A stretch of DNA of 64,000 nucleotides from NCBI GenBank assembly GCA_038114465.1, contig JAYNQW010000006.1, positions 43,059 to 107,058 of the forward strand, given 5' to 3'. The notes under the pieces were generated by a model, which was not told the origin of the DNA, ran no database searches, and saw only the letters and a list, made by a program, of their open reading frames with translations. This DNA comes from Rhodospirillaceae bacterium (GTDB lineage Bacteria > Pseudomonadota > Alphaproteobacteria > Rhodospirillales > CALINB01). Made by a program: the position numbers and the translations under genes. Shown in pieces: positions 2,448 through 11,222 of the stretch (position 1 is the stretch's first letter; every line of letters starts with the position of its first letter).

Positions 2448-3011
2448 TTACAGTTCAGCCGCTTTAAGAAGTTGTTCCGCCGATTTTTTAGCCTGCATCG
2501 CGGCATCCTTTTGATTGCCGACATAATACATCACCACGGCCCCCTCCATTAAAAGCGTAAGCCCCTGTCCAAGAAGATCAGGGTTTTTAAAACCAGCTTT
2601 TTCCGCCAAGTCGGTTATGTACTTAACGACAAGCCGTTTATTTTCGGCACAGATGACATGAATCGGACTTTCAGCTTCAGGAAACTCGGCCGCGGCATTG
2701 ATAAACATGCAACCGGAAAAATCGCGGGTTCCAAACCATTCATCCAACGTATCGAAAATGGCGAGCAATTGTTTGCGGGGCTCCTTCGCGCGGCTTTCAA
2801 CACCTTGCATAAACATGTTGCGAAAGATTTCGTCCCTTTTGCGAAGCGCGGCCAGGATGAGTTCGTCCTTGGACTTGAAGTGTTTATAGAGGGTCATCTT
2901 GGCGACCCCGGATTCGGTTAGGATTTTATCGATTCCGGTGGCGTGAAAGCCGTCCCGATAAAACAGATCAATCGCCGTATCCACCAGCTGTTCGCGTTTC
3001 GTTGAGGGCAT
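2448..3011 (-). CDS. TetR/AcrR family regulator (NemR/YxaF-like)
   Basis: N-terminal HTH GFHATGIDKIL...GVAKMTLYKHFKSKDEL; C-terminal GCMFIN motif. Confidence 0.92.
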   Translation of the reverse strand: MPSTKREQLVDTAIDLFYRDGFHATGIDKILTESGVAKMTLYKHFKSKDELILAALRKRDEIFRNMFMQGVESRAKEPRKQLLAIFDTLDEWFGTRDFSGCMFINAAAEFPEAESPIHVICAENKRLVVKYITDLAEKAGFKNPDLLGQGLTLLMEGAVVMYYVGNQKDAAMQAKKSAEQLLKAAEL

Positions 3012-3028
3012 ATTGCGGTCCTAATATT

Positions 3029-3046
3029 GACATACAGGTATGTCTA
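3029..3046. promoter_or_regulatory. Candidate TetR operator 1
   Basis: Palindrome GACATAC-AG-GTATGTC (3029-3044) just upstream of the tetR start; 3031-3046 matches operator 2 at 13/16 positions. Confidence 0.65.
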
Positions 3047-3188
3047 TTAAATATACAAAATTAATAATAAAATCAAGACATTGGTTGCAAGGCCGTCGTT
3101 GATTATAACCTGATAATCTAAAATACAACAATAAACTCAATGAGTTATATATGTATCCCGGCCTTCAAACGGGACACATATTTAAGGC

Positions 3189-3217
3189 TTGACAAAACAG
3201 ACAAGTCTGTCTATATT
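3189..3217 (+). promoter_or_regulatory. Sigma70 promoter with candidate TetR operator 2 in its spacer
   Basis: TTGACA (3189-3194), 17 nt spacer, TATATT (3212-3217); the palindrome AGACA-AGTC-TGTCT spans 3199-3212. Confidence 0.7.
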
Positions 3218-3282
3218 AACTCCATTCAAGCAATCCTCCCCCTGAGACCAGGCCCTGGGAGAACGAAAAGGAGACCCAAGCG

Positions 3283-3630
3283 ATGAAATTTTCAAAAGCG
3301 GTATGGAGCGCACTGACATCGGCCTTGATCGTCTTTTTTGTGACCTCAGAGGCTTGGTCTCAATCTTCGGAGAAAAACAGCCCATTGGTGTGCGCCCCAC
3401 GGGACGCGGCTATCGCTGAATTGTCCGGCCATTTCAACGAACAAGTGATTGGCCGGGGTTTGAGCACAAACGGACAAGCCATGTTGGAAATCTACAAAAG
3501 TAATGGTGGTTCGTGGACGGTCATTGTCACAGACGCCAAAGGCGTGAGTTGTGTTCTCGCTAATGGTCAAGTTTGGATCGTTACCCAAACGAACAATGAC
3601 AAATACGTTTTTGCCAAATCACGAAAATAG
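3283..3630 (+). CDS. Hypothetical secreted protein with two Cys
   Basis: AAGGAG RBS, signal-peptide-like N-terminus, C-x-x-R...GSWT...G-x-SC pattern resembling small alphaproteobacterial periplasmic proteins. Confidence 0.75.
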   Translation: MKFSKAVWSALTSALIVFFVTSEAWSQSSEKNSPLVCAPRDAAIAELSGHFNEQVIGRGLSTNGQAMLEIYKSNGGSWTVIVTDAKGVSCVLANGQVWIVTQTNNDKYVFAKSRK

Positions 3631-3639
3631 GTAACCGAC

Positions 3640-3732
3640 ATGACGAAAACCAAAAAAACAAAACTGAATATCATTATGGTGGTTTCGTCATTGATATTGC
3701 TCGGAAGTCTACTCTTCACATCACAAACATAA
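3640..3732 (+). CDS. Possible 30-aa small membrane peptide
   Basis: ATG..TAA encoding MTKTKKTKLNIIMVVSSLILLGSLLFTSQT (basic N-terminus plus hydrophobic helix), filling the gap inside the operon. Weak RBS. Confidence 0.35.
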   Translation: MTKTKKTKLNIIMVVSSLILLGSLLFTSQT

Positions 3733-3758
3733 ATTAACTTTTAAATAAGGAGACTACC

Positions 3759-4316
3759 ATGACACGCATTCAAGCCATCGATCCCAAGAACGCTCAAGGC
3801 CAAGTTAAGGAGCAATTGGACGGAGTTCAAAAATCCCTCGGACTCGTTCCCAATATTATCGCAACGATTGCACAATCGCCGGCGGCTTTGGAATCATACC
3901 TTGCGACCGGCAAGGCACTTTCAGGCGGAAAGCTCGATGCAAAATTACGAGAACAAATTGCTTTAGCCGTTGCTGGCGAAAACACATGCGATTATTGCGC
4001 GACGGCCCACACGGTACTCGGCAAAATGGCCGGCGTCGACGAAATCGAACTTGTGCGCAACCTCAAGGGCGAATCCGCGAACCCTCAAATTCAAGCGGCG
4101 TTGAAGTTTGCGAAAACGGTCGTCGAAAAACGCGGCTTCGTAACGGACCAAGAGCTGCAACAAGTGCGGGATGCCGGTTATGACGACGGCGAGGTTGTCG
4201 AAATCATTGCGCATGTCGCTCACAACATCTTCACAAACTACTTCAACCATATCGCTGGTACCGAAATCGATTTTCCGGTTGTCGATACGGGTGAAAAAGC
4301 AAAAGCCGCGGCCTAA
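3759..4316 (+). CDS. AhpD/carboxymuconolactone decarboxylase family peroxidase-related protein
   Basis: REQIALAVAGENTCDYCATAH (CxxC...H); AAGGAG RBS. Confidence 0.9.
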   Translation: MTRIQAIDPKNAQGQVKEQLDGVQKSLGLVPNIIATIAQSPAALESYLATGKALSGGKLDAKLREQIALAVAGENTCDYCATAHTVLGKMAGVDEIELVRNLKGESANPQIQAALKFAKTVVEKRGFVTDQELQQVRDAGYDDGEVVEIIAHVAHNIFTNYFNHIAGTEIDFPVVDTGEKAKAAA

Positions 4317-4330
4317 TGCCGTGACTTCTG

Positions 4331-4389
4331 GGCCGCCGTGTCTCTGCCCCCAGTCCTCCCCCCGAACGGCACGGCGGCCTCTTTCTTTT
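4331..4389 (+). terminator. GC-rich hairpin with pyrimidine tail (terminator or mRNA stabiliser)
   Basis: GGCCGCCGTG...CACGGCGGCC followed by TCTTTCTTTT. Confidence 0.5.
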
Positions 4390-4402
4390 AAGGATTTGAG
4401 CC

Positions 4403-5005
4403 ATGAGCGAATTGATCAGCGATATTGCCTTTACCCCGGCTGTAAAAGCCGTGCAGGAACGTAAAGGGTCCCGCCAAGGATATGCTGCGATGGAAGCCAA
4501 AGGCGGTTGGGTCAATGTGATTTCAAATGAACTCAAGGACTTTATCGCCGATCGAAATTCGTTTTACTTGGCAACGTCTACTGCCGACGGTCAGCCTTAT
4601 ATACAACACCGTGGCGGCAAAAAGGGCTTCCTCAAAGTCCTCGATGAACGAACGCTTGCTTTCGCCGACTTTAAAGGAAACCGCCAGTATATTTCGACCG
4701 GCAATGTCACGGAAAATGATAAGGCGTATATCTTCCTGATGGATTATGCCAACCGCCGCCGGATTAAGATATGGGGCACGTTGAAGGTCATTAATAACGA
4801 CCCGGCATTATTAAAGTCTCTCACCGATACCGATTACAACGGTAAACCCGAACAAGCCATGGTGTTTACCGTGACCGCTTGGGATGTGAACTGCCCGCAG
4901 CACATTCCGCAACTGTTCGATCAAGAGCAGGTGGAAAAAATGATTGCGCCCTTGCAAGCGCGCATTGCTGAACTCGAGGCGCGGTTGCAGATCGCTTATA
5001 CTTAG
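4403..5005 (+). CDS. Pyridoxamine 5'-phosphate oxidase-like FMN-binding protein
   Basis: SFYLAT...GQPYIQHRGG..GFL, FADFKGNRQYIS.GN, DVNCPQHIP. Confidence 0.88.
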   Translation: MSELISDIAFTPAVKAVQERKGSRQGYAAMEAKGGWVNVISNELKDFIADRNSFYLATSTADGQPYIQHRGGKKGFLKVLDERTLAFADFKGNRQYISTGNVTENDKAYIFLMDYANRRRIKIWGTLKVINNDPALLKSLTDTDYNGKPEQAMVFTVTAWDVNCPQHIPQLFDQEQVEKMIAPLQARIAELEARLQIAYT

Positions 5006-5024
5006 TAGCAGCGTAAAATGGTTT

Positions 5025-5588
5025 TTAAATCCGCTCTGATAACCAAATGGCGAAGCGAGAACTTGCTTTCACGGCTCCTTTCAGGACTTCGTACCCTGGT
5101 GCTTCTTCGGCGCCGTGCTCTAAGCTGGTGTCCCGGTGTTCGAGCTCTTCCTGGCGGAACTCTTCGAACGTGTCCTTGAGGTCTTGATCGTTTTCGTCCA
5201 GTTCCGCGACTTGTCCCGCATAATGCTCGTCAATCACTTCCTCGACTGCGACCGTGCACGCCATGGCGGCTTTTTCCCCCATCAGCGCCGTCGCCGCGCC
5301 GAGTGCAAAACCGGCAACGTGCCAAACCGGCAGTAGTGCCGTCGGGCGGACTTTGTTGTCGGCGATCAGCTCGTTGAATTTTTCAAGGTGCCGTTCTTCT
5401 TGCTTGGCCATTTTCTCAATGACGGGTGCGGATGGCGTGTTTCCGAGAACGGCCAATTGACCTTCATAAATGCGGACCGCGCCGTATTCGCCGGCGTGAT
5501 CGACGCGGATCATGCGTTCAACCATTTGCTCGCGAGTTAAATCACCGGGCAGGCGGTTTTGTTGCGTTGATTTAGGCGTTGCCGTCAT
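5025..5588 (-). CDS. coq7: Demethoxyubiquinone hydroxylase Coq7 (di-iron)
   Basis: MIRVDHAGEYGAVRIYEGQ, EERH, AMACTVAVEEVIDEHY, EELEH. The start at 5588 overlaps the dsbB stop. Confidence 0.92.
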   Translation of the reverse strand: MTATPKSTQQNRLPGDLTREQMVERMIRVDHAGEYGAVRIYEGQLAVLGNTPSAPVIEKMAKQEERHLEKFNELIADNKVRPTALLPVWHVAGFALGAATALMGEKAAMACTVAVEEVIDEHYAGQVAELDENDQDLKDTFEEFRQEELEHRDTSLEHGAEEAPGYEVLKGAVKASSRFAIWLSERI

Positions 5589-6100
5589 GTCCGTGCCTGT
5601 AAATATTTTGTGCTCGTGAAACAACCCGTCGCGAGAAGTACCGAATAGACAATGTTATACCCCGCCATCGAGATTCCGAAAAGTTGCCAGTCGACAACAT
5701 CACAGGCTTTCGGTTCACCTTTCATGAGAGCTTTCTGCATTTGCTCAAATGTTGAGCCGCCCGGCGTGCCGCCGCAAACGGCGGAAGCCCACCAATGCTG
5801 TTCGACCCCGACATGATAAACCGCCAAGCCAGCGCTGGCCAGAAAGACCACGCCACAGAGCATGATTACGATGGTTTGCGTGCGCCCGCCCTGAATGCCT
5901 TCCATCGGGCCGGCCAATGCAAGCAATGCTAAAATGCCCGCAATGGCAAACGGAATACGTTGATACAGGCACAGTTGACAGGGTTCGTAATCGAATGCGA
6001 TTTCAGCGGTATACGCAAAACCGAGGGCGCCGACACTGGCGCTGAGAATGGCCAGTGGGATCAACCGGGGCGCGCCGATCCATTTGAAAATCGATGTCAT
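5585..6100 (-). CDS. dsbB: Disulfide bond formation protein B family
   Basis: EPCQLCLYQR, YHVGVEQHWW, second Cys pair, LFGISMAGYN. Confidence 0.88.
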   Translation of the reverse strand: MTSIFKWIGAPRLIPLAILSASVGALGFAYTAEIAFDYEPCQLCLYQRIPFAIAGILALLALAGPMEGIQGGRTQTIVIMLCGVVFLASAGLAVYHVGVEQHWWASAVCGGTPGGSTFEQMQKALMKGEPKACDVVDWQLFGISMAGYNIVYSVLLATGCFTSTKYLQART

Positions 6101-6146
6101 AGAGACACATATAGTGCAAAGCGATCTTTGGAGCCAAGTGTCGCGT

Positions 6147-6794
6147 TTAAAATATATATTTCAGCAGGACAAATCCGCCGAACAGCAGGATAAAAAAGAG
6201 CGTCACCAGTTTCGCGAGGTGCTGCTCAATGAAAGCGCGGATCGGCGCGCCGAAATACCACAACAGGCCGGCGACAATAAAGAAACGGATACCGCGCGAG
6301 ATACCGGACGCTACCGTGAATGTCGTGAGATCAAGGCCGGTTACGCCGCTCGCAATCGTGATGACTTTATACGGAAATGGTGTCAGGCCGGCCCCGGCGA
6401 CAATCCATGCGCCCCATTCATTGTATTGTGCTTGAAAAGATTCAAATTTTGTCGCGTAGCCGTAAAACTCCATCAGCGGGCGACCGACGGCTTCGTAGGC
6501 GTAATGGCCGATCCCATAACCCGCCAGGCCGCCGGCGACGGAAGCAACCGTACATACGGCGGCGATACGCCAGGCTTTTTCCCGGGTCGCGAGTACCATG
6601 GGAATAATCAGGACATCCGGCGGGATCGGAAAAAAAGAGCTTTCAACGAAGGATACGATAGCCAACGCCCACAGAGCATGGCGGTGGGCGGCTAAAGAGA
6701 GGGTCCAGTCATATAAGCGTTGCAGCACGTGAAAATCAGCCGGGTGATGAGAAGGTCTAGTCAGTGTCGTGTCCGCAGGTGGTTTATCAGTCAT
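6147..6794 (-). CDS. YqaA/DedA (SNARE-associated) family membrane protein
   Basis: SFVESSFFPIPPD, GLTPFPYKVITIASG, SRGIRFF. Start uncertain. Confidence 0.88.
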   Translation of the reverse strand: MTDKPPADTTLTRPSHHPADFHVLQRLYDWTLSLAAHRHALWALAIVSFVESSFFPIPPDVLIIPMVLATREKAWRIAAVCTVASVAGGLAGYGIGHYAYEAVGRPLMEFYGYATKFESFQAQYNEWGAWIVAGAGLTPFPYKVITIASGVTGLDLTTFTVASGISRGIRFFIVAGLLWYFGAPIRAFIEQHLAKLVTLFFILLFGGFVLLKYIF

Positions 6795-6913
6795 CACCGA
6801 GAAGGGCAATCCGCGGCGCGCTGTTTTTGAGTAAATTTCACAAGGTCTTGTCATTTTCAAATGTCTTGTCTATGCCTTGTGAGGTGCTTTCTGAACATTT
6901 GCTTTCGTTGTAG

Positions 6914-8773
6914 GTGACGATGACAACCGATCAAAATACCGATATTCCGGCTTTACTTGAAAAGGGTCTCGAGCTTCATAAAACGGGTCAATTCCCTCAA
7001 GCCGAAGAAATTTACCGCGATATTTTAAACCGGCAGCCGGATCATGCCGATGCCTTGCATTATCTCGGCTTGTTGGCAGTGATCGGCGGAGAGGTTGAAA
7101 AAGGAATCGAACTGGTCGGCAGGGCGATATCGATTAATCCTGAAAACGCCGCGGCCCACAGCAATCTCGGTAACATGTTGCGTGACGCCGGACGCCTCGA
7201 GGATGCAATGACGCATTTACGCCGGTCCATCGATATTGATTCGACCTTTGCTTCGACGCATGCCGATCTCGGCCGGGCTTTGATGGATGCCGGGCAACTG
7301 GACGATGCCGCTGCCGCTTTGCAAAAAGCGGTTGAATTGGATAATCAACATTTAGAGTCTCTCAGCAATTTAGGGCTTATTCATTTAAGTCAGGGAAATG
7401 CGGCGGCGGCTTCGGATCATTTCAGCCAAGCTATTGCCGTTAATGCGGAGCTTCCTGATTTATTCCTCAATCACAGTTTAGCGCTGCAGGAACTCGGAAA
7501 TTTTGACGAGGCCCTGGAACAAATTAACCGCGCCTTGGCTCTGGATGCCGATCAAGTTGATTATGTTTTCAACCAAGGCACGATCTATCAGGACATGGGA
7601 CGTATCGATGATGCCATTGAAGCATATGAGCGTGCCGTTAAGCTTGATAAAAGTATGTTTCAAGCACGCTGTAATCTTGGTGCATTGCTTGAGGGTCAAG
7701 ACGGTCGCTTAGACGATGCTATCGATCATTATAAAAAGGCGCTGGCGATCGAACCGAATGTCCCCGCGGTTTTGGTAAATTTGGGCAACGCCTTACAGGC
7801 TAGAGGCGATATAGACGAGGCTTTGGAAAATTATGAAAAAGCATTCTCGATTTCACCGGACCCAGCGACTGAAATCATGCTTCGTCAATTACGGTCCCGG
7901 CAATTGCCACGGTGGCATTTTCCCATGCTGGCCGATGACAAAAGAAACAAAGCGTATCAGGACGCCATCGAAAAAGTCGTGACGCCCACATCGAATGTTC
8001 TCGATATCGGTACCGGCTCGGGGTTATTGGCAATGATGGCGGCGCGTGCCGGTGCGTCAAGCGTCACAGCGTGTGAATCATCGTCCGCATTAGCAGTGGC
8101 GGCAAAGAAAATTATCGGTCAAAACGGTTTTGCGGATAAAATCAAAGTCATCGAAAAAAAATCGAACGATCTGATCGTTGGCGAAGATATAACCCAACGG
8201 GCCGACGTGATTATCGCCGAGGTGTTTGACTCCGGCTTGCTGCGCGAAGGGGCTTTGCCGACTCTGCGCCATGCCATGGCGCAATTGGCGGTCCCCAGCG
8301 CTAAAGTAATTCCGGGTTCGGCAACGGTCAAAGGCAAGCTGGTATCGCTGCCGGTCTTAAGGCGGGTCAATCCGGTTCGTGATATTGCCGGCTTCGATCT
8401 CTCCGTATTCGATGACTACCGCAATCCGTATGCTCAAATTCAGGATTTAAATCACGAAGAGCATCAATCCCTAAGCGATGTGTTTACCATTGCAACGTAT
8501 GATTTTGCAGCTCTGAAACCTAAAGCGGCAACGGGCATAGAAGAAAAAGCCCTACGGGTGAAAGCCTGCGAAACAGGAACGGCGCACGCCGTCGTCTTTT
8601 GGTTCGACCTCACGCTCGCCGATGGCATCGTTTTATCATCGGGGCCGGATGACGGACACTCTCACTGGGGGCAGGCGGTACAGTTTTTCGATAAGGATAT
8701 TGAGATTACGGCGGGTGCCGATGTGCCGTTGACGGTGTGTCTCGGCGAAATGCAGATTACGTTTAAAGTTTAA
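6914..8773 (+). CDS. TPR-repeat protein fused to a protein-arginine-methyltransferase-like (PRMT7/PRMT9-like) domain
   Basis: About 9 TPR motifs over roughly the first 315 aa, then WHFPMLADDKRNKAY, VLDIGTGSG, VTACE, double-E loop EVFDSGLLRE, FWFDL and SHWGQ. Confidence 0.85.
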   Translation: MTMTTDQNTDIPALLEKGLELHKTGQFPQAEEIYRDILNRQPDHADALHYLGLLAVIGGEVEKGIELVGRAISINPENAAAHSNLGNMLRDAGRLEDAMTHLRRSIDIDSTFASTHADLGRALMDAGQLDDAAAALQKAVELDNQHLESLSNLGLIHLSQGNAAAASDHFSQAIAVNAELPDLFLNHSLALQELGNFDEALEQINRALALDADQVDYVFNQGTIYQDMGRIDDAIEAYERAVKLDKSMFQARCNLGALLEGQDGRLDDAIDHYKKALAIEPNVPAVLVNLGNALQARGDIDEALENYEKAFSISPDPATEIMLRQLRSRQLPRWHFPMLADDKRNKAYQDAIEKVVTPTSNVLDIGTGSGLLAMMAARAGASSVTACESSSALAVAAKKIIGQNGFADKIKVIEKKSNDLIVGEDITQRADVIIAEVFDSGLLREGALPTLRHAMAQLAVPSAKVIPGSATVKGKLVSLPVLRRVNPVRDIAGFDLSVFDDYRNPYAQIQDLNHEEHQSLSDVFTIATYDFAALKPKAATGIEEKALRVKACETGTAHAVVFWFDLTLADGIVLSSGPDDGHSHWGQAVQFFDKDIEITAGADVPLTVCLGEMQITFKV

Positions 8774-8801
8774 TCAGCATTCTATTTTCGGAATAATCAA
8801 T

Positions 8802-9329
8802 ATGGCGCGGCTTTCTTATATCGACGATGCGGCAAAGAAATCAGTAAAGGAATTAGCCGAACGGATCAGCGCGCAGCGAAACGGTAATTTACCGAATTTA
8901 TTTCGCATGCTGCTGCACAGCCCCAATGTTGCCGCGGGTTGGTTCGATTTCTTGTCATCAATCCGCAAAGAGTCGATCCTCGATGGCCGTACACGGGAAT
9001 TTGTCATTATCTATGTTGCGATGCTCTTGCGCGCCGACTATCCCATCAACGACCATATACCGATCGCTCTCAAAGAAGGTATTACCCAAGACGAAATGGA
9101 TGCTTTGGAATCGTGGCACACATCGTCGTTGTTTGATCAGCGCGATAAGGCGTTGCTCGCTTATGTCGAGGAATCGAGCGAGAACGTTCAGGTGCCTGAT
9201 GATGTCTTCGAGGATTTACGCCGGCAGTACAGCGACCGGGAAGTCATTGAGATCACCGTATTAATCGGGGCCTATCATCTCGTGGCTCGGTTTCTCGAAG
9301 CGCTGCAAATCGACCTCGAGCCGTCCTGA
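8802..9329 (+). CDS. Carboxymuconolactone decarboxylase family protein
   Basis: NLFRMLLHSP, LDGRTREFVI...ADY...H, EITVLIGAYH. Confidence 0.85.
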   Translation: MARLSYIDDAAKKSVKELAERISAQRNGNLPNLFRMLLHSPNVAAGWFDFLSSIRKESILDGRTREFVIIYVAMLLRADYPINDHIPIALKEGITQDEMDALESWHTSSLFDQRDKALLAYVEESSENVQVPDDVFEDLRRQYSDREVIEITVLIGAYHLVARFLEALQIDLEPS

Positions 9330-9470
9330 CCGGCGGCCAGCGCCAAGCTGATCGCATGAAGTGTGTTGAGGCCCTGTGCGACCGCCCACGTCGACAATCA
9401 TCACGCAATCGGCGACACCGTGCTCTTTTGCTATATCAACAGCGGCCGCCATTATTTAATTGGCGCTGTC
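9330..9470 (-). pseudogene. Probable remnant of a GlcG/HbpS heme-binding protein gene
   Basis: Reads SAN*IMAAAVDIAKEHGVADCVMIVDVGG, resembling the GlcG N-terminus; there is an upstream in-frame TAA and the frame breaks after VDVGG. Confidence 0.4.
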
Positions 9471-9646
9471 TTTTATGATTTGAAATATCCGATAGCTCAA
9501 TCGATTAGACAAGAACAGCCATTGTCATGATTGGTTCGGTAAAGACGTTGCTGCAAAGCGTTTCTCCCGCTAAAAAGCCTCATCCCGTTCTGATCATGTC
9601 AGGATCGGATCGGTAAACAGACATTAAATTTGATCGGATGGCACCT

Positions 9647-10621
9647 ATGACTAAAGCAATACAAATTCATGAAAACGGCGGCCCGGAAGTCCTGAAATAC
9701 GAAGATGTCGACGTCGGCGCACCCGGCGAGGGCGAAGCGCGGGTGAGGCACACCGCGATCGGCCTGAATTTTCTCGACATCAATCACCGCATGGGCGGTC
9801 ATGGTACGCCGACACCGCCAGTGATCCTCGGCACTGAAGGTATTGGTATTGTTGAAGAGGTCGGGCCCGGCGTGACGGAGGTTAAAGCCGGTGATCGGGT
9901 TGGCTATGCGCCACGCGCGGGGGCTTATTCGGAAGCCCGCCTTATTCCAGCGGATCGTTTGGTGCCGATTCCGGATGGGATCGATGATCGCACAGCTGCG
10001 GGGGCGCTGATGAAAGGCATGACGGCGGAATACCTGATTCGCCGTTGCTACGAAGTGAAAAAGGGTGAAACGATTGTTGCCTATGCCGCCGCCGGCGGGG
10101 TCGGTTCAATTCTATGCCAATGGGCGAAGCATTTGGGTGCAACCGTGGTCGGCATCGTCGGTTCGGACGAAAAAGCCGAGATTGCCAAAGCGAACGGGTG
10201 TGCGCACACAATTAATTACACGAATGAAAAGATTCCTGAAAAAGTTCGAGAGCTGACCGACGGTAAGGGTGTGCCGGTGGTTTTCGATTCCATCGGCGGC
10301 GCGACGTTCAAGGACAGTCTCGATTGCCTGGCCCCGCGGGGTTATATGATCAGCTACGGCAACGCATCGGGAATCGTCGATCCGGTCCCGCTGTCCGATC
10401 TGGTTTCGCGCGGTTCGCTTTATCTCACGCGCCCGACCATGGGGACTTACTGTGTTGCGCGTGAGGATATCCTGGCCGGCACAAAAGCACTTTTTGACGT
10501 AATGCAGGCCGGGCATGTGAAAATTTCGATCGGCCAATCCTATGCGTTGAAAGATATGGCGCAGGCGCACCGCGACTTGGAGGCCCGTAAAACAACGGGT
10601 TCGACAGTAATCGAACCGTAA
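9647..10621 (+). CDS. qor: NADPH:quinone oxidoreductase (zeta-crystallin/MDR family)
   Basis: GGPEVL, AIGLNFLD, AAAGGVG, YGNASG, GSLYLTRP, TTGST. Confidence 0.92.
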   Translation: MTKAIQIHENGGPEVLKYEDVDVGAPGEGEARVRHTAIGLNFLDINHRMGGHGTPTPPVILGTEGIGIVEEVGPGVTEVKAGDRVGYAPRAGAYSEARLIPADRLVPIPDGIDDRTAAGALMKGMTAEYLIRRCYEVKKGETIVAYAAAGGVGSILCQWAKHLGATVVGIVGSDEKAEIAKANGCAHTINYTNEKIPEKVRELTDGKGVPVVFDSIGGATFKDSLDCLAPRGYMISYGNASGIVDPVPLSDLVSRGSLYLTRPTMGTYCVAREDILAGTKALFDVMQAGHVKISIGQSYALKDMAQAHRDLEARKTTGSTVIEP

Positions 10622-10679
10622 ACATCAACGGGTTCGACGGTGATCGTGATGGCCCCGATATCAAGGCGCGCCATGAGAA

Positions 10680-11222
10680 CTATTGAATCATACGATCAAC
10701 AAGGCCGGCGCCGAGCCCGACTTTTTCGTAATGTTCCTTAACCCGGGCAATGCGCGTGAAGACGTCCTCGAAACCGGTTTGCCTGCCGTTTTCATCCACC
10801 ATGATGAGCGGACCGAAACTGTGGAACAGCGTCAGCATGTGACCCTCTTTGCCGTCTTCGCCGGGTTTGACGATCAGCGTGTGGGTTTCGCCGGCGGGTT
10901 CGTAGACGAATGTCCCCGCGGTCGCGGTCCAGTCGTGTTCGATGTAACCCCAGCTGCCTTCCAGGGTAAACCCGGTGACGGGCGCCGGGTGGCGGTGGCG
11001 GCCGATCACGCCTTCGCGCTTGGCCTTGGTGATGTTGACCCAGGTTCCTTGGGTGACGTTAAAGAGGAGCGGGCGGAACCAAACCTGATCGTTATCCTGG
11101 CGTGGCACCCACATGCGCTCGTCGTCTGAACCGGTATGGGTGACCATTTCGCGTTTGGCTTCAGGCGGCAGGGCGACGTCAATGGCCTGCATGGCCTGGG
11201 GCAATGTGTGAAGTTGAGCCAA
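10680..11222 (-). CDS. 2,4'-dihydroxyacetophenone dioxygenase-like cupin
   Basis: RHRHPAPVTGFTLEGSWGYIEHDW...YEPAGETHTL; TTG start after a GGGAGG RBS. Confidence 0.85.
   Translation of the reverse strand: MAQLHTLPQAMQAIDVALPPEAKREMVTHTGSDDERMWVPRQDNDQVWFRPLLFNVTQGTWVNITKAKREGVIGRHRHPAPVTGFTLEGSWGYIEHDWTATAGTFVYEPAGETHTLIVKPGEDGKEGHMLTLFHSFGPLIMVDENGRQTGFEDVFTRIARVKEHYEKVGLGAGLVDRMIQ

Follow-up and report, generated by a model that had tools for sequence, protein, structure and literature searches.

PRMT7, PRMT9 and a bacterial gene of similar plan

Current reviews treat arginine methylation and the protein arginine methyltransferases (PRMTs) that write it as a eukaryotic system. Two members of that system, PRMT7 and PRMT9, are the nearest solved relatives of the product of a bacterial gene analysed here, which lies in a stretch of 64,000 nucleotides from a Rhodospirillaceae bacterium (GenBank assembly GCA_038114465.1, contig JAYNQW010000006.1, positions 43,059 to 107,058; hereafter the window). 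The gene encodes an array of tetratricopeptide repeats (TPRs) followed by a PRMT module and is referred to as TPR-PRMT. It belongs to a conserved, apparently active PRMT7/9-like family that is found across several bacterial phyla and hidden under labels like 'TPR protein'. Its product likely acts as a homodimeric protein arginine methyltransferase that relies on the TPRs to choose its substrates.

PRMTs act as head-to-tail dimers or, in PRMT7, as two-module pseudo-dimers, in which the N-terminal module is active and the C-terminal module dead. PRMT9 holds on tightly to SF3B2, its main substrate, where methylation is essentially limited to a single site. The available portion of a PRMT7 review leaves bacterial homologues unmentioned and calls the origin of PRMT7 open. 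The bacterial 'peptide methylases' (Aravind, Abhiman and Iyer 2011, as cited in an excerpt of PMC3417536) belong, within bacteria, to the wider PRMT radiation. They sit in secondary-metabolite operons or giant synthetases, whereas the TPR-PRMT clade is TPR-fused and stand-alone.

PRMT9 (6pdm, 7rbq, 8rbk) comes closest in overall plan. It is the best full-length structural match, its N-terminal TPRs are colinear with the PRMT module, with one alignment running across the junction, and it has in common with TPR-PRMT a WHF.ML.D..RN helix and an Asp in the double-E loop. However, PRMT9 has three TPRs and two tandem modules, whereas TPR-PRMT has nine TPRs and one module, ending at the first beta-barrel. 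The identity is about 32%, PRMT9 has a Cys where TPR-PRMT has His584, and SF3B2 is a spliceosome protein without a bacterial counterpart. A first-pass annotation of the window, made from the letters alone, had ascribed the architecture of PRMT9 to this protein. The order of N-terminal TPRs and then a PRMT module is indeed common to both; the numbers of modules and repeats are not.

PRMT7 (TbPRMT7 4m36, 5eku; mouse 4c4a) provides the best sequence match, in the mouse enzyme, and the best structural match to the catalytic part, in TbPRMT7. The likeness extends to the double-E loop, E-x-F-D-...-G-E-G-A-L-P, and to the His-Trp of the THW loop. On the other hand, PRMT7 lacks TPRs, the animal enzyme carries a zinc finger and a second module that is dead, and the identity is 28-31%. 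PRMT7 from animals, plants and fungi has two tandem modules, the second inactive, where TPR-PRMT has one; this excludes membership of the animal type but leaves room for a mechanism like that of PRMT7, because trypanosome PRMT7 is also single-module. The single module is a point of likeness to TbPRMT7, and TPR-PRMT is predicted to homodimerise through its arm. With regard to type I enzymes, the motif YFxxY in the N-terminal helix is their hallmark (PRMT1-like). TPR-PRMT lacks it, and the matches to PRMT1, 3, 6 and 8 (E 1e-13 to 1e-19) are far weaker than those to PRMT7 and PRMT9 (1e-40 to 1e-44).

The catalytic module

TPR-PRMT contains a complete PRMT module, made of N-terminal helices, a Rossmann site for S-adenosylmethionine (SAM), a double-E loop, an HW loop, a beta-barrel and an arm (Table 1). 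The six motifs quoted in the first-pass annotation are all present, once each: WHFPMLADDKRNKAY (residues 334-348, nt 7913-7957), motif I VLDIGTGSG (362-370), VTACE (384-388), the double-E loop EVFDSGLLRE with its E-x8-E spacing (436-445), FWFDL (562-566) and SHWGQ (583-587). Its remark that a type I YxxY motif is not evident also stands, as no Y..Y was found in residues 300-345, before the WHF helix. Pfam PRMT_C matches residues 491-609 with 50.2 bits against a cut-off of 27, well outside what chance would give; in 14 well-known control genomes, this family was found in none.

Conservation was counted over 255 single-module proteins from a set in which 270 of 271 collected relatives matched the family profile; the sample is not independent, as cluster members and fragments are included. 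At the SAM site, G366 and G368 are each kept in 253 of the 255 and E388 in 250. The double-E loop retains E436 in 253, D439 in 246 and E445 in 248, and the equivalent of the THW loop retains H584 in 229, W585 in 253 and Q587 in 242. R344 (251) and W563 (254) are similarly constant, and W334, H335, M338, D341, R344 and N345 are invariant or near-invariant across the family. Near-invariance of SAM-site and catalytic residues is the pattern of an enzyme under selection and not that of a scaffold. TPR-PRMT is a real bacterial enzyme of PRMT7/9 type and is probably active.

Relatives by sequence and predicted fold

With residues 325-619 as the query, the 60 matches listed from the full set of PDB sequences are without exception PRMTs, with mouse PRMT7 (E 2.4e-44) followed by bovine and human PRMT9 (3.3e-40 to 1.1e-38) and T. 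brucei PRMT7 (9.7e-31). The aligned helix of PRMT9 reads 'rwhfimlndtkrn', and the double-E loop reads 'elfdtelige' in mouse PRMT7 and 'tetvdaglfge' in PRMT9. These readings bear out two features that the first-pass annotation had named, the WHF.ML.D..RN segment of PRMT9 and the Asp in the double-E loop of PRMT7. As PRMT9 carries the Asp too, this residue does not separate PRMT7 from PRMT9. In the HW loop, PRMT7 and type I enzymes such as PRMT1 have the same His, in place of which PRMT9 aligns a Cys; 'PRMT7-like active site' is therefore a fair description. Identity to eukaryotic PRMT7 and PRMT9 is 27-32%.

The fold comparison proposed in the first-pass annotation, AlphaFold followed by Foldseek, points the same way. 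A full-length AlphaFold model built on 36 homologues (pLDDT 92.8, pTM 0.77) has full-length bovine PRMT9 as its best Foldseek match (E 7.7e-24, 462 columns), ahead of TbPRMT7, mouse PRMT7 and human PRMT9. The catalytic part was also modelled alone (pLDDT 91.7) and compared, by a method other than Foldseek, with 48,161 representative chains. The top 15 chains are all PRMTs, with Z of 21.5-32.3 and 266-291 of the 295 residues aligned; the highest ranks go to TbPRMT7 (Z 32.3, 291 aligned), PRMT9 (Z 31.5, root-mean-square deviation 2.3) and mouse PRMT7 (Z 30.1). After the PRMTs come PrmA, with Z 13.9 over 120 residues and Z 13.5 over 139, and other Rossmann methyltransferases. The first-pass annotation had named a missing beta-barrel, or a better fit to PrmA or to small-molecule enzymes, as evidence that would speak against it; what the model displays is a PRMT barrel and a fit to PRMTs far above the 13.9 that is the most reached by the others.

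Two copies of the protein are predicted to pair, with an ipSAE of 0.69, while the best of 3 controls gave 0.00; of 30 proteins whose solved structures are pairs, 20 attain the ipSAE mark, as does 1 of 23 solved as single chains. At least 83% of the contacts agree across the dimer runs, and the partner pLDDT is at least 87. In the predicted interface, arm residues 481-516 of one copy lie on residues 330-349, 369-375 and 392-404 of the other, that is, on its N-terminal helices and Rossmann surface. The model would accordingly represent the canonical arm-to-Rossmann homodimer of PRMTs; since the arrangement resembles solved PRMT dimers, the pass may stem from this likeness.

The TPR array and its junction with the module

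Pfam recognises eight TPR_2 stretches (E 2.8e-51), and the AlphaFold model contains 18 paired helices, corresponding to nine TPR hairpins (residues 11-313), plus a capping helix (317-328), in agreement with the earlier estimate of about nine repeats. TPR families of Pfam are also present in 114 of the 120 best homologues listed. The repeats match those of OGT (phmmer E 2.9e-49; Foldseek TM 0.68-0.82 on the target), and in OGT and SPINDLY, too, a long TPR superhelix at the N-terminus leads into an enzyme that modifies proteins, although their catalytic domain, a glycosyltransferase, is unrelated. Six of the nine repeats have Asn at TPR position 6. Since an Asn there is the general TPR consensus, the idea that extended peptides are threaded as in OGT is only a lead.

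When the last three TPRs are added to the query, phmmer aligns one stretch to residues 65-421 of the 8rbk chain, spanning the junction between TPRs and module from the last two TPRs onward, and the score rises from 141.5 to 157.8 bits for the 105 TPR residues added. That the fusions in TPR-PRMT and PRMT9 descend from a common one was considered on this ground and is not claimed, because the likeness between TPRs is generic and the gain in bits is small, no more than such likeness would give.

An orthologue in a genome of the same genus (L093 8288-10546 (-) = G001 contig C16) occupies the same slot, adjoining the DedA/VTT gene. It has 752 aa and two extra TPRs, and is 47% identical overall and 62% in the catalytic part, with the greatest divergence in the central TPRs; the genes flanking it are 70-84% identical. 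Both the count of TPRs and their sequence thus evolve at a much higher rate than the surrounding genes. At another locus (L095 7137-8108 (-) and 8174-8965 (-) = G021 contig C13), a PRMT module of 323 aa adjoins a TPR protein of 263 aa. The two are read in different frames, and their open frames overlap, so that the locus holds either a genuinely split form or a fusion gene broken by a frameshift.

Distribution and phylogeny

A search of 1.84 billion cluster representatives gave 10,028 matches at E<=1e-3, the weaker of which must include other methyltransferases and eukaryotic PRMTs, 4,715 at 1e-10 and 831 at 1e-30. Among species-representative genomes, a relative is encoded in 422 of the 599 pattern matches listed, hence in at least 422. 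Eighty loci were kept from such genomes, and these come from Alphaproteobacteria (Rhodospirillaceae, Dongiaceae, Ferrovibrio, Azospirillum, Bradyrhizobium, Maricaulis), Bacteroidota (Saprospiraceae, Lewinella, Roseivirga, Owenweeksia, Flavobacteriaceae), Cyanobacteria (Nostoc, Scytonema), Gammaproteobacteria, a metagenome-assembled genome (MAG) of Desulfobacteraceae and a Streptomyces. Cultured carriers include Lewinella cohaerens DSM 23179, Roseivirga spongicola, R. seohaensis, Oceanospirillum beijerinckii DSM 7166 and Nostoc paludosum FACHB-159. An even sample of the class to which the source organism belongs yielded matches at E<=1e-30 in 29 of 301 genomes, spread over 24 of the 254 genera. 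Within its order, strong matches occur in 5 of 41 genomes, and five further genomes have matches only at E 5e-5 to 1e-3, to the Rossmann motif.

In databases, family members carry mistaken labels: 'tetratricopeptide repeat protein', 'Flp pilus assembly protein TadD', 'precorrin-6B methylase 2', 'hypothetical protein' or '50S ribosomal protein L11 methyltransferase', much as the first-pass annotation had foreseen when it expected pipelines to see only a TPR or PrmA-like protein. One JGI entry bears the name 'type II protein arginine methyltransferase', and a UniRef entry is called 'Protein arginine N-methyltransferase domain-containing protein'.

A quick maximum-likelihood tree, unrooted and with bacterial rows only, was computed from 75 catalytic modules, namely those of the 80 family ORFs (open reading frames) minus six with fewer than 230 profile positions, plus a paralogue from the genome of the window. 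Rows from one phylum mostly cluster together in it: phylum labels change 6 times, against a minimum of 4 and a shuffled mean of 27.7. The tree points to long residence in bacteria with some transfer. Having neither eukaryotic sequences nor a root, it is silent on the direction of gene transfer.

The paralogue in question is a second intact TPR-PRMT (L002 1456-2877 (-) = G000 contig C10, about 102.6-104.0 kb). It has 473 aa, about five TPRs and the motifs WHFPMLNDSIRN, VLDIGTGSG, SEILDIGLLGEG and NHW, is 40% identical in the catalytic part, and has a protein of a Rhodospirillales MAG as its sister in the tree. The two paralogues fall in different alphaproteobacterial groups of the tree, and the same-genus genome G001 likewise carries both copies.

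Some relatives have two modules and no or weak TPRs. They comprise metagenomic proteins of 645-744 aa (P0122, P0009, P0124, P0073, P0133, P0147, P0145, P0223 and P0070) and the longer P0137 (1110 aa) and P0208 (960 aa). Their C-terminal module keeps the catalytic set, with GxGxG in 15 of 15 and, at the position of the first Glu, E in 11 but D in the other 4, and their N-terminal module is degenerate, the reverse of the PRMT7 order. Orthology of these proteins of about 680 aa to PRMT7 or PRMT9 was rejected, as their best PDB matches reach only E 1.9e-42 to 1e-24. No full-length match to P0122 was found in 401 genomes of the phylum; six of them match this query at E<=1e-40, in every case only over its C-terminal module.

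Proposed function and alternative readings

TPR-PRMT would be a cytoplasmic, SAM-dependent protein arginine N-methyltransferase, a bacterial single-module form of the PRMT7/PRMT9 branch. Two copies would pair head to tail, each resting its arm against the partner's Rossmann domain, and form the ring that PRMT7 and PRMT9 build with their second, dead module. E436 and E445 would hold the guanidinium of the substrate arginine beside SAM, and D439 may favour a basic sequence context; the acidic residue in the double-E loop of PRMT7 reportedly takes part in the choice of Arg-X-Arg sites, a finding ascribed to Feng et al. 2014. The TPR superhelix could bind an extended segment or a partner protein and select a few specific substrates, as has been proposed for PRMT9. 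It is by analogy with PRMT9, which methylates essentially one site on SF3B2, that the nine TPRs are inferred to pick few specific targets. The product would most likely be monomethylarginine or symmetric dimethylarginine; that it is monomethylarginine (type III) is possible, at somewhat less than even confidence.

A number of points weigh against this assignment. The patchy spread of the gene, seen in the order above (5 of 41 genomes), means that its function is dispensable. The loop reads SHW instead of THW, with position 583 variable, and the product type is not legible from the sequence. The predictions of fold and dimer lean on likeness to solved PRMTs. No conserved operon partner was found, the commonest neighbour being a generic ABC ATPase at 13 of 81 loci, and the CMD gene downstream was not found beside the same-genus orthologue. 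A sub-clade from Roseivirga and Cyclobacteriaceae (L034, L044, L046, L072) adjoins 2OG-Fe(II) oxygenase and formyltransferase genes. Aravind and colleagues, in the excerpted part of PMC3417536, had regarded bacterial PRMT relatives as 'peptide methylases' tied to secondary-metabolite operons. Finally, in the full-text literature, whose coverage leaves out most subscription journals, neither a biochemical study of a bacterial PRMT nor a characterised member of the bacterial TPR-fused clade was found. The first-pass annotation had spoken of an undescribed system, which does not hold for the class, already noted in that same excerpt; as far as found, the TPR-fused, stand-alone, PRMT7/9-like clade is undescribed in experiments.

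The alternative that survives best is that TPR-PRMT is a peptide or natural-product methylase, whose target would be an arginine or a guanidino group in some small peptide, made on the ribosome or not, and not in cellular proteins; Aravind and colleagues put forward such a role for bacterial sister groups of PRMTs. It draws on the closest bacterial PRMT relatives, which according to the excerpt of PMC3417536 occur in secondary-metabolite operons with dioxygenases, non-ribosomal peptide synthetases (NRPS) and amine oxidases. It also draws on the presence of 2OG-Fe(II) oxygenases (5) and formyltransferase-like proteins (4) among 140 immediate neighbours from 73 loci, mostly concentrated in one Bacteroidota sub-clade plus L064 and L076. 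This oxygenase-linked sub-clade is well-supported, recalls the peptide-modifying operons of Aravind and may be a functionally different branch. However, none of the 140 neighbours has NRPS or polyketide synthase (PKS) domains at E<=1e-8. The genes around TPR-PRMT itself, encoding COQ7, DsbB, DedA/VTT, CMD and quinone oxidoreductase, include no biosynthetic ones, and the intergenic gaps of 53 nt upstream and 28 nt downstream (to the CMD start) leave no room for a precursor ORF. Moreover, a nine-repeat TPR array better suits protein partners, and the nearest solved relatives, PRMT7 and PRMT9, modify proteins. A peptide methylase is unlikely.

It is very unlikely that the PRMT fold serves another acceptor, such as lysine, glutamine, an alpha-amino group (as in PrmA) or a non-protein guanidino compound. 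The non-canonical SHW loop, the name 'L11 methyltransferase' given to relatives by some sources and a Pfam PrmA match over residues 351-438 (E 5.5e-11) would be in its favour. This match is confined to the class I Rossmann SAM-binding core that PrmA and TPR-PRMT have in common (profile positions 154-235 of 296), and no NCBIfam model scores above its cut-off over the catalytic part (prmA, TIGR00406, 40.8 bits vs 183.15). TPR-PRMT lacks the L11-binding N-domain with which PrmA holds its substrate, whereas the PRMT beta-barrel, double-E loop and HW loop are all missing from PrmA. The structural alignment to PrmA extends over no more than 120-139 residues (Z 13.5-13.9) compared with 291 for PRMT7 (Z 32), and both guanidinium-binding glutamates are near-invariant.

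It is hardly credible that TPR-PRMT is a scaffold devoid of activity, or a gene that recently strayed in from a eukaryote and has no bacterial function of its own: the patchy distribution, the dead second modules of PRMT7 and PRMT9 themselves and the fast-diverging TPR part (47% identity in the orthologue vs 70-84% in flanking genes) would fit it, but 246-253 of the 255 homologues retain the residues for SAM binding and catalysis, the identity to eukaryotic PRMT7 and PRMT9 is only 27-32%, the deep clades follow phylum, and two intact paralogues are kept in both the source genome and the same-genus genome.

If TPR-PRMT is an active arginine methyltransferase, it would be a dedicated bacterial writer of methylarginine, and bacteria may methylate protein arginines far more than assumed. 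It would also offer a one-module, homodimeric model for the steering of a PRMT by TPRs, a question left by PRMT9, and hundreds of database entries could be re-annotated. A wider reading, somewhat unlikely as a whole, is that the bacterial TPR-PRMT clade is the prokaryotic stock of eukaryotic PRMT7 and PRMT9, with a fusion that predates eukaryotes and a methylarginine role in living bacteria. The fusion may then have entered with an alphaproteobacterial or other bacterial donor, and methylarginine would be set on specific cytoplasmic proteins chosen by fast-evolving TPR arrays. This would amount to a regulated bacterial modification with writers in about a tenth of alphaproteobacterial genomes, many Bacteroidota and Cyanobacteria. 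A rooted tree would make the origin of the PRMT7/PRMT9 branch testable.

Gene, neighbourhood and expression

The ORF lies exactly where the first-pass annotation had placed it. It gives 619 aa when counted from GTG 6914; ATG 6920 is the likelier start, because AGGTGA precedes it (6912-6917) and the resulting 617-aa form is present as an identical protein (P0002) in a public collection. Neither a signal peptide nor a membrane segment was found by Kyte-Doolittle hydropathy over the whole protein (maximum 19-residue mean 1.41, and 0.74 at the N-terminus), and the protein looks cytoplasmic, as had been supposed. Searches for promoters and terminators gave results that were not above shuffles (3 found vs 3.4 expected, and 6 vs 3.8).

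Table 1. Parts of the TPR-PRMT gene and genes near it, in coordinates of the window.
Feature	Position	Strand	Basis or remark
Whole TPR-PRMT gene	6914..8773	+	ORF, 619 aa from GTG; likelier 617 aa from ATG 6920
Nine TPR hairpins	6941..7852 (residues 10-313)	+	Pfam TPR_2; model helices, block pLDDT 93-98; OGT/SPY TPR matches
Capping/linker helix, TPR array to catalytic module	7862..7897 (residues 317-328)	+	Model helix; PRMT9 alignment crosses junction
N-terminal PRMT helices with WHFPMLADDKRNKAY	7913..7978 (residues 334-355)	+	PRMT9 alignment; predicted dimer interface
Rossmann SAM-binding domain	7979..8311 (residues 356-466)	+	Motif I VLDIGTGSG, post-I acidic E388
Double-E loop EVFDSGLLRE, E436/D439/E445	8219..8248 (residues 436-445)	+	Conservation; E-x-x-D-...-E-G pattern as PRMT7/PRMT9
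PRMT beta-barrel including FWFDL	8312..8770 (residues 467-619)	+	Pfam PRMT_C; VIA-align 291/295 residues on TbPRMT7; W563
Dimerisation arm inserted in beta-barrel	8348..8482 (about residues 479-523)	+	Model helices 480-483, 497-502; predicted interface 481-516
THW-loop equivalent SHWGQ	8660..8674 (residues 583-587)	+	H584, W585, Q587 conservation
TetR-like regulator	2448-3011		Read from sequence
CMD/AhpD-like genes	3759-4316 and 8802-9329		
PNPOx-like gene	4403-5005		
COQ7	5025-5624		
DsbB	5585-6100		
DedA/VTT	6147-6860		Divergent from TPR-PRMT
Quinone oxidoreductase	9638-10621		
ChrR-type cupin	10680-11222		

The gene sits between the divergent DedA/VTT membrane-protein gene and a CMD (AhpD-like) gene (Table 1). 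The region 2448-11222 is rich in redox and quinone genes, whose link to the methyltransferase is nowhere conserved. Neighbours were clustered from ORFs of at least 80 aa at the 80 loci and the window (81 sources), and the PRMT family itself was found in 74 of these, followed by the ABC ATPase mentioned above, acyl-CoA dehydrogenases (8) and LytTR regulators (8). TPR-PRMT stands alone, without a conserved operon partner. By Pfam, the immediate neighbours are heterogeneous, and those that recur do so within particular lineages; acyl-CoA dehydrogenases account for 9 ORFs in 5 loci, and DJ-1/PfpI and an ABC ATPase recur in Roseivirga-type loci. A role as an anti-phage defence system was considered and rejected, as PADLOC gave only generic matches, to a methyltransferase core (mad2, residues 356-458) and to TPRs.

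The source organism is described as a marine bacterium, and DNA of the gene is present in metagenomes from seawater, estuary and salt marsh. In four salt-marsh metatranscriptome runs, 15 contigs of 151-240 nt match with at least 99% identity, and 12 of these fall within the gene. As metatranscriptome libraries can carry DNA, this hints only weakly at transcription, and stretches of the gene that no contig covers carry no meaning either way.

In a Thiotrichaceae MAG (L079 1745-4135 (+)), a family member adjoins another fusion of TPRs with a methyltransferase, which has 797 aa and a methyltransferase of another type (Methyltransf_25/31).

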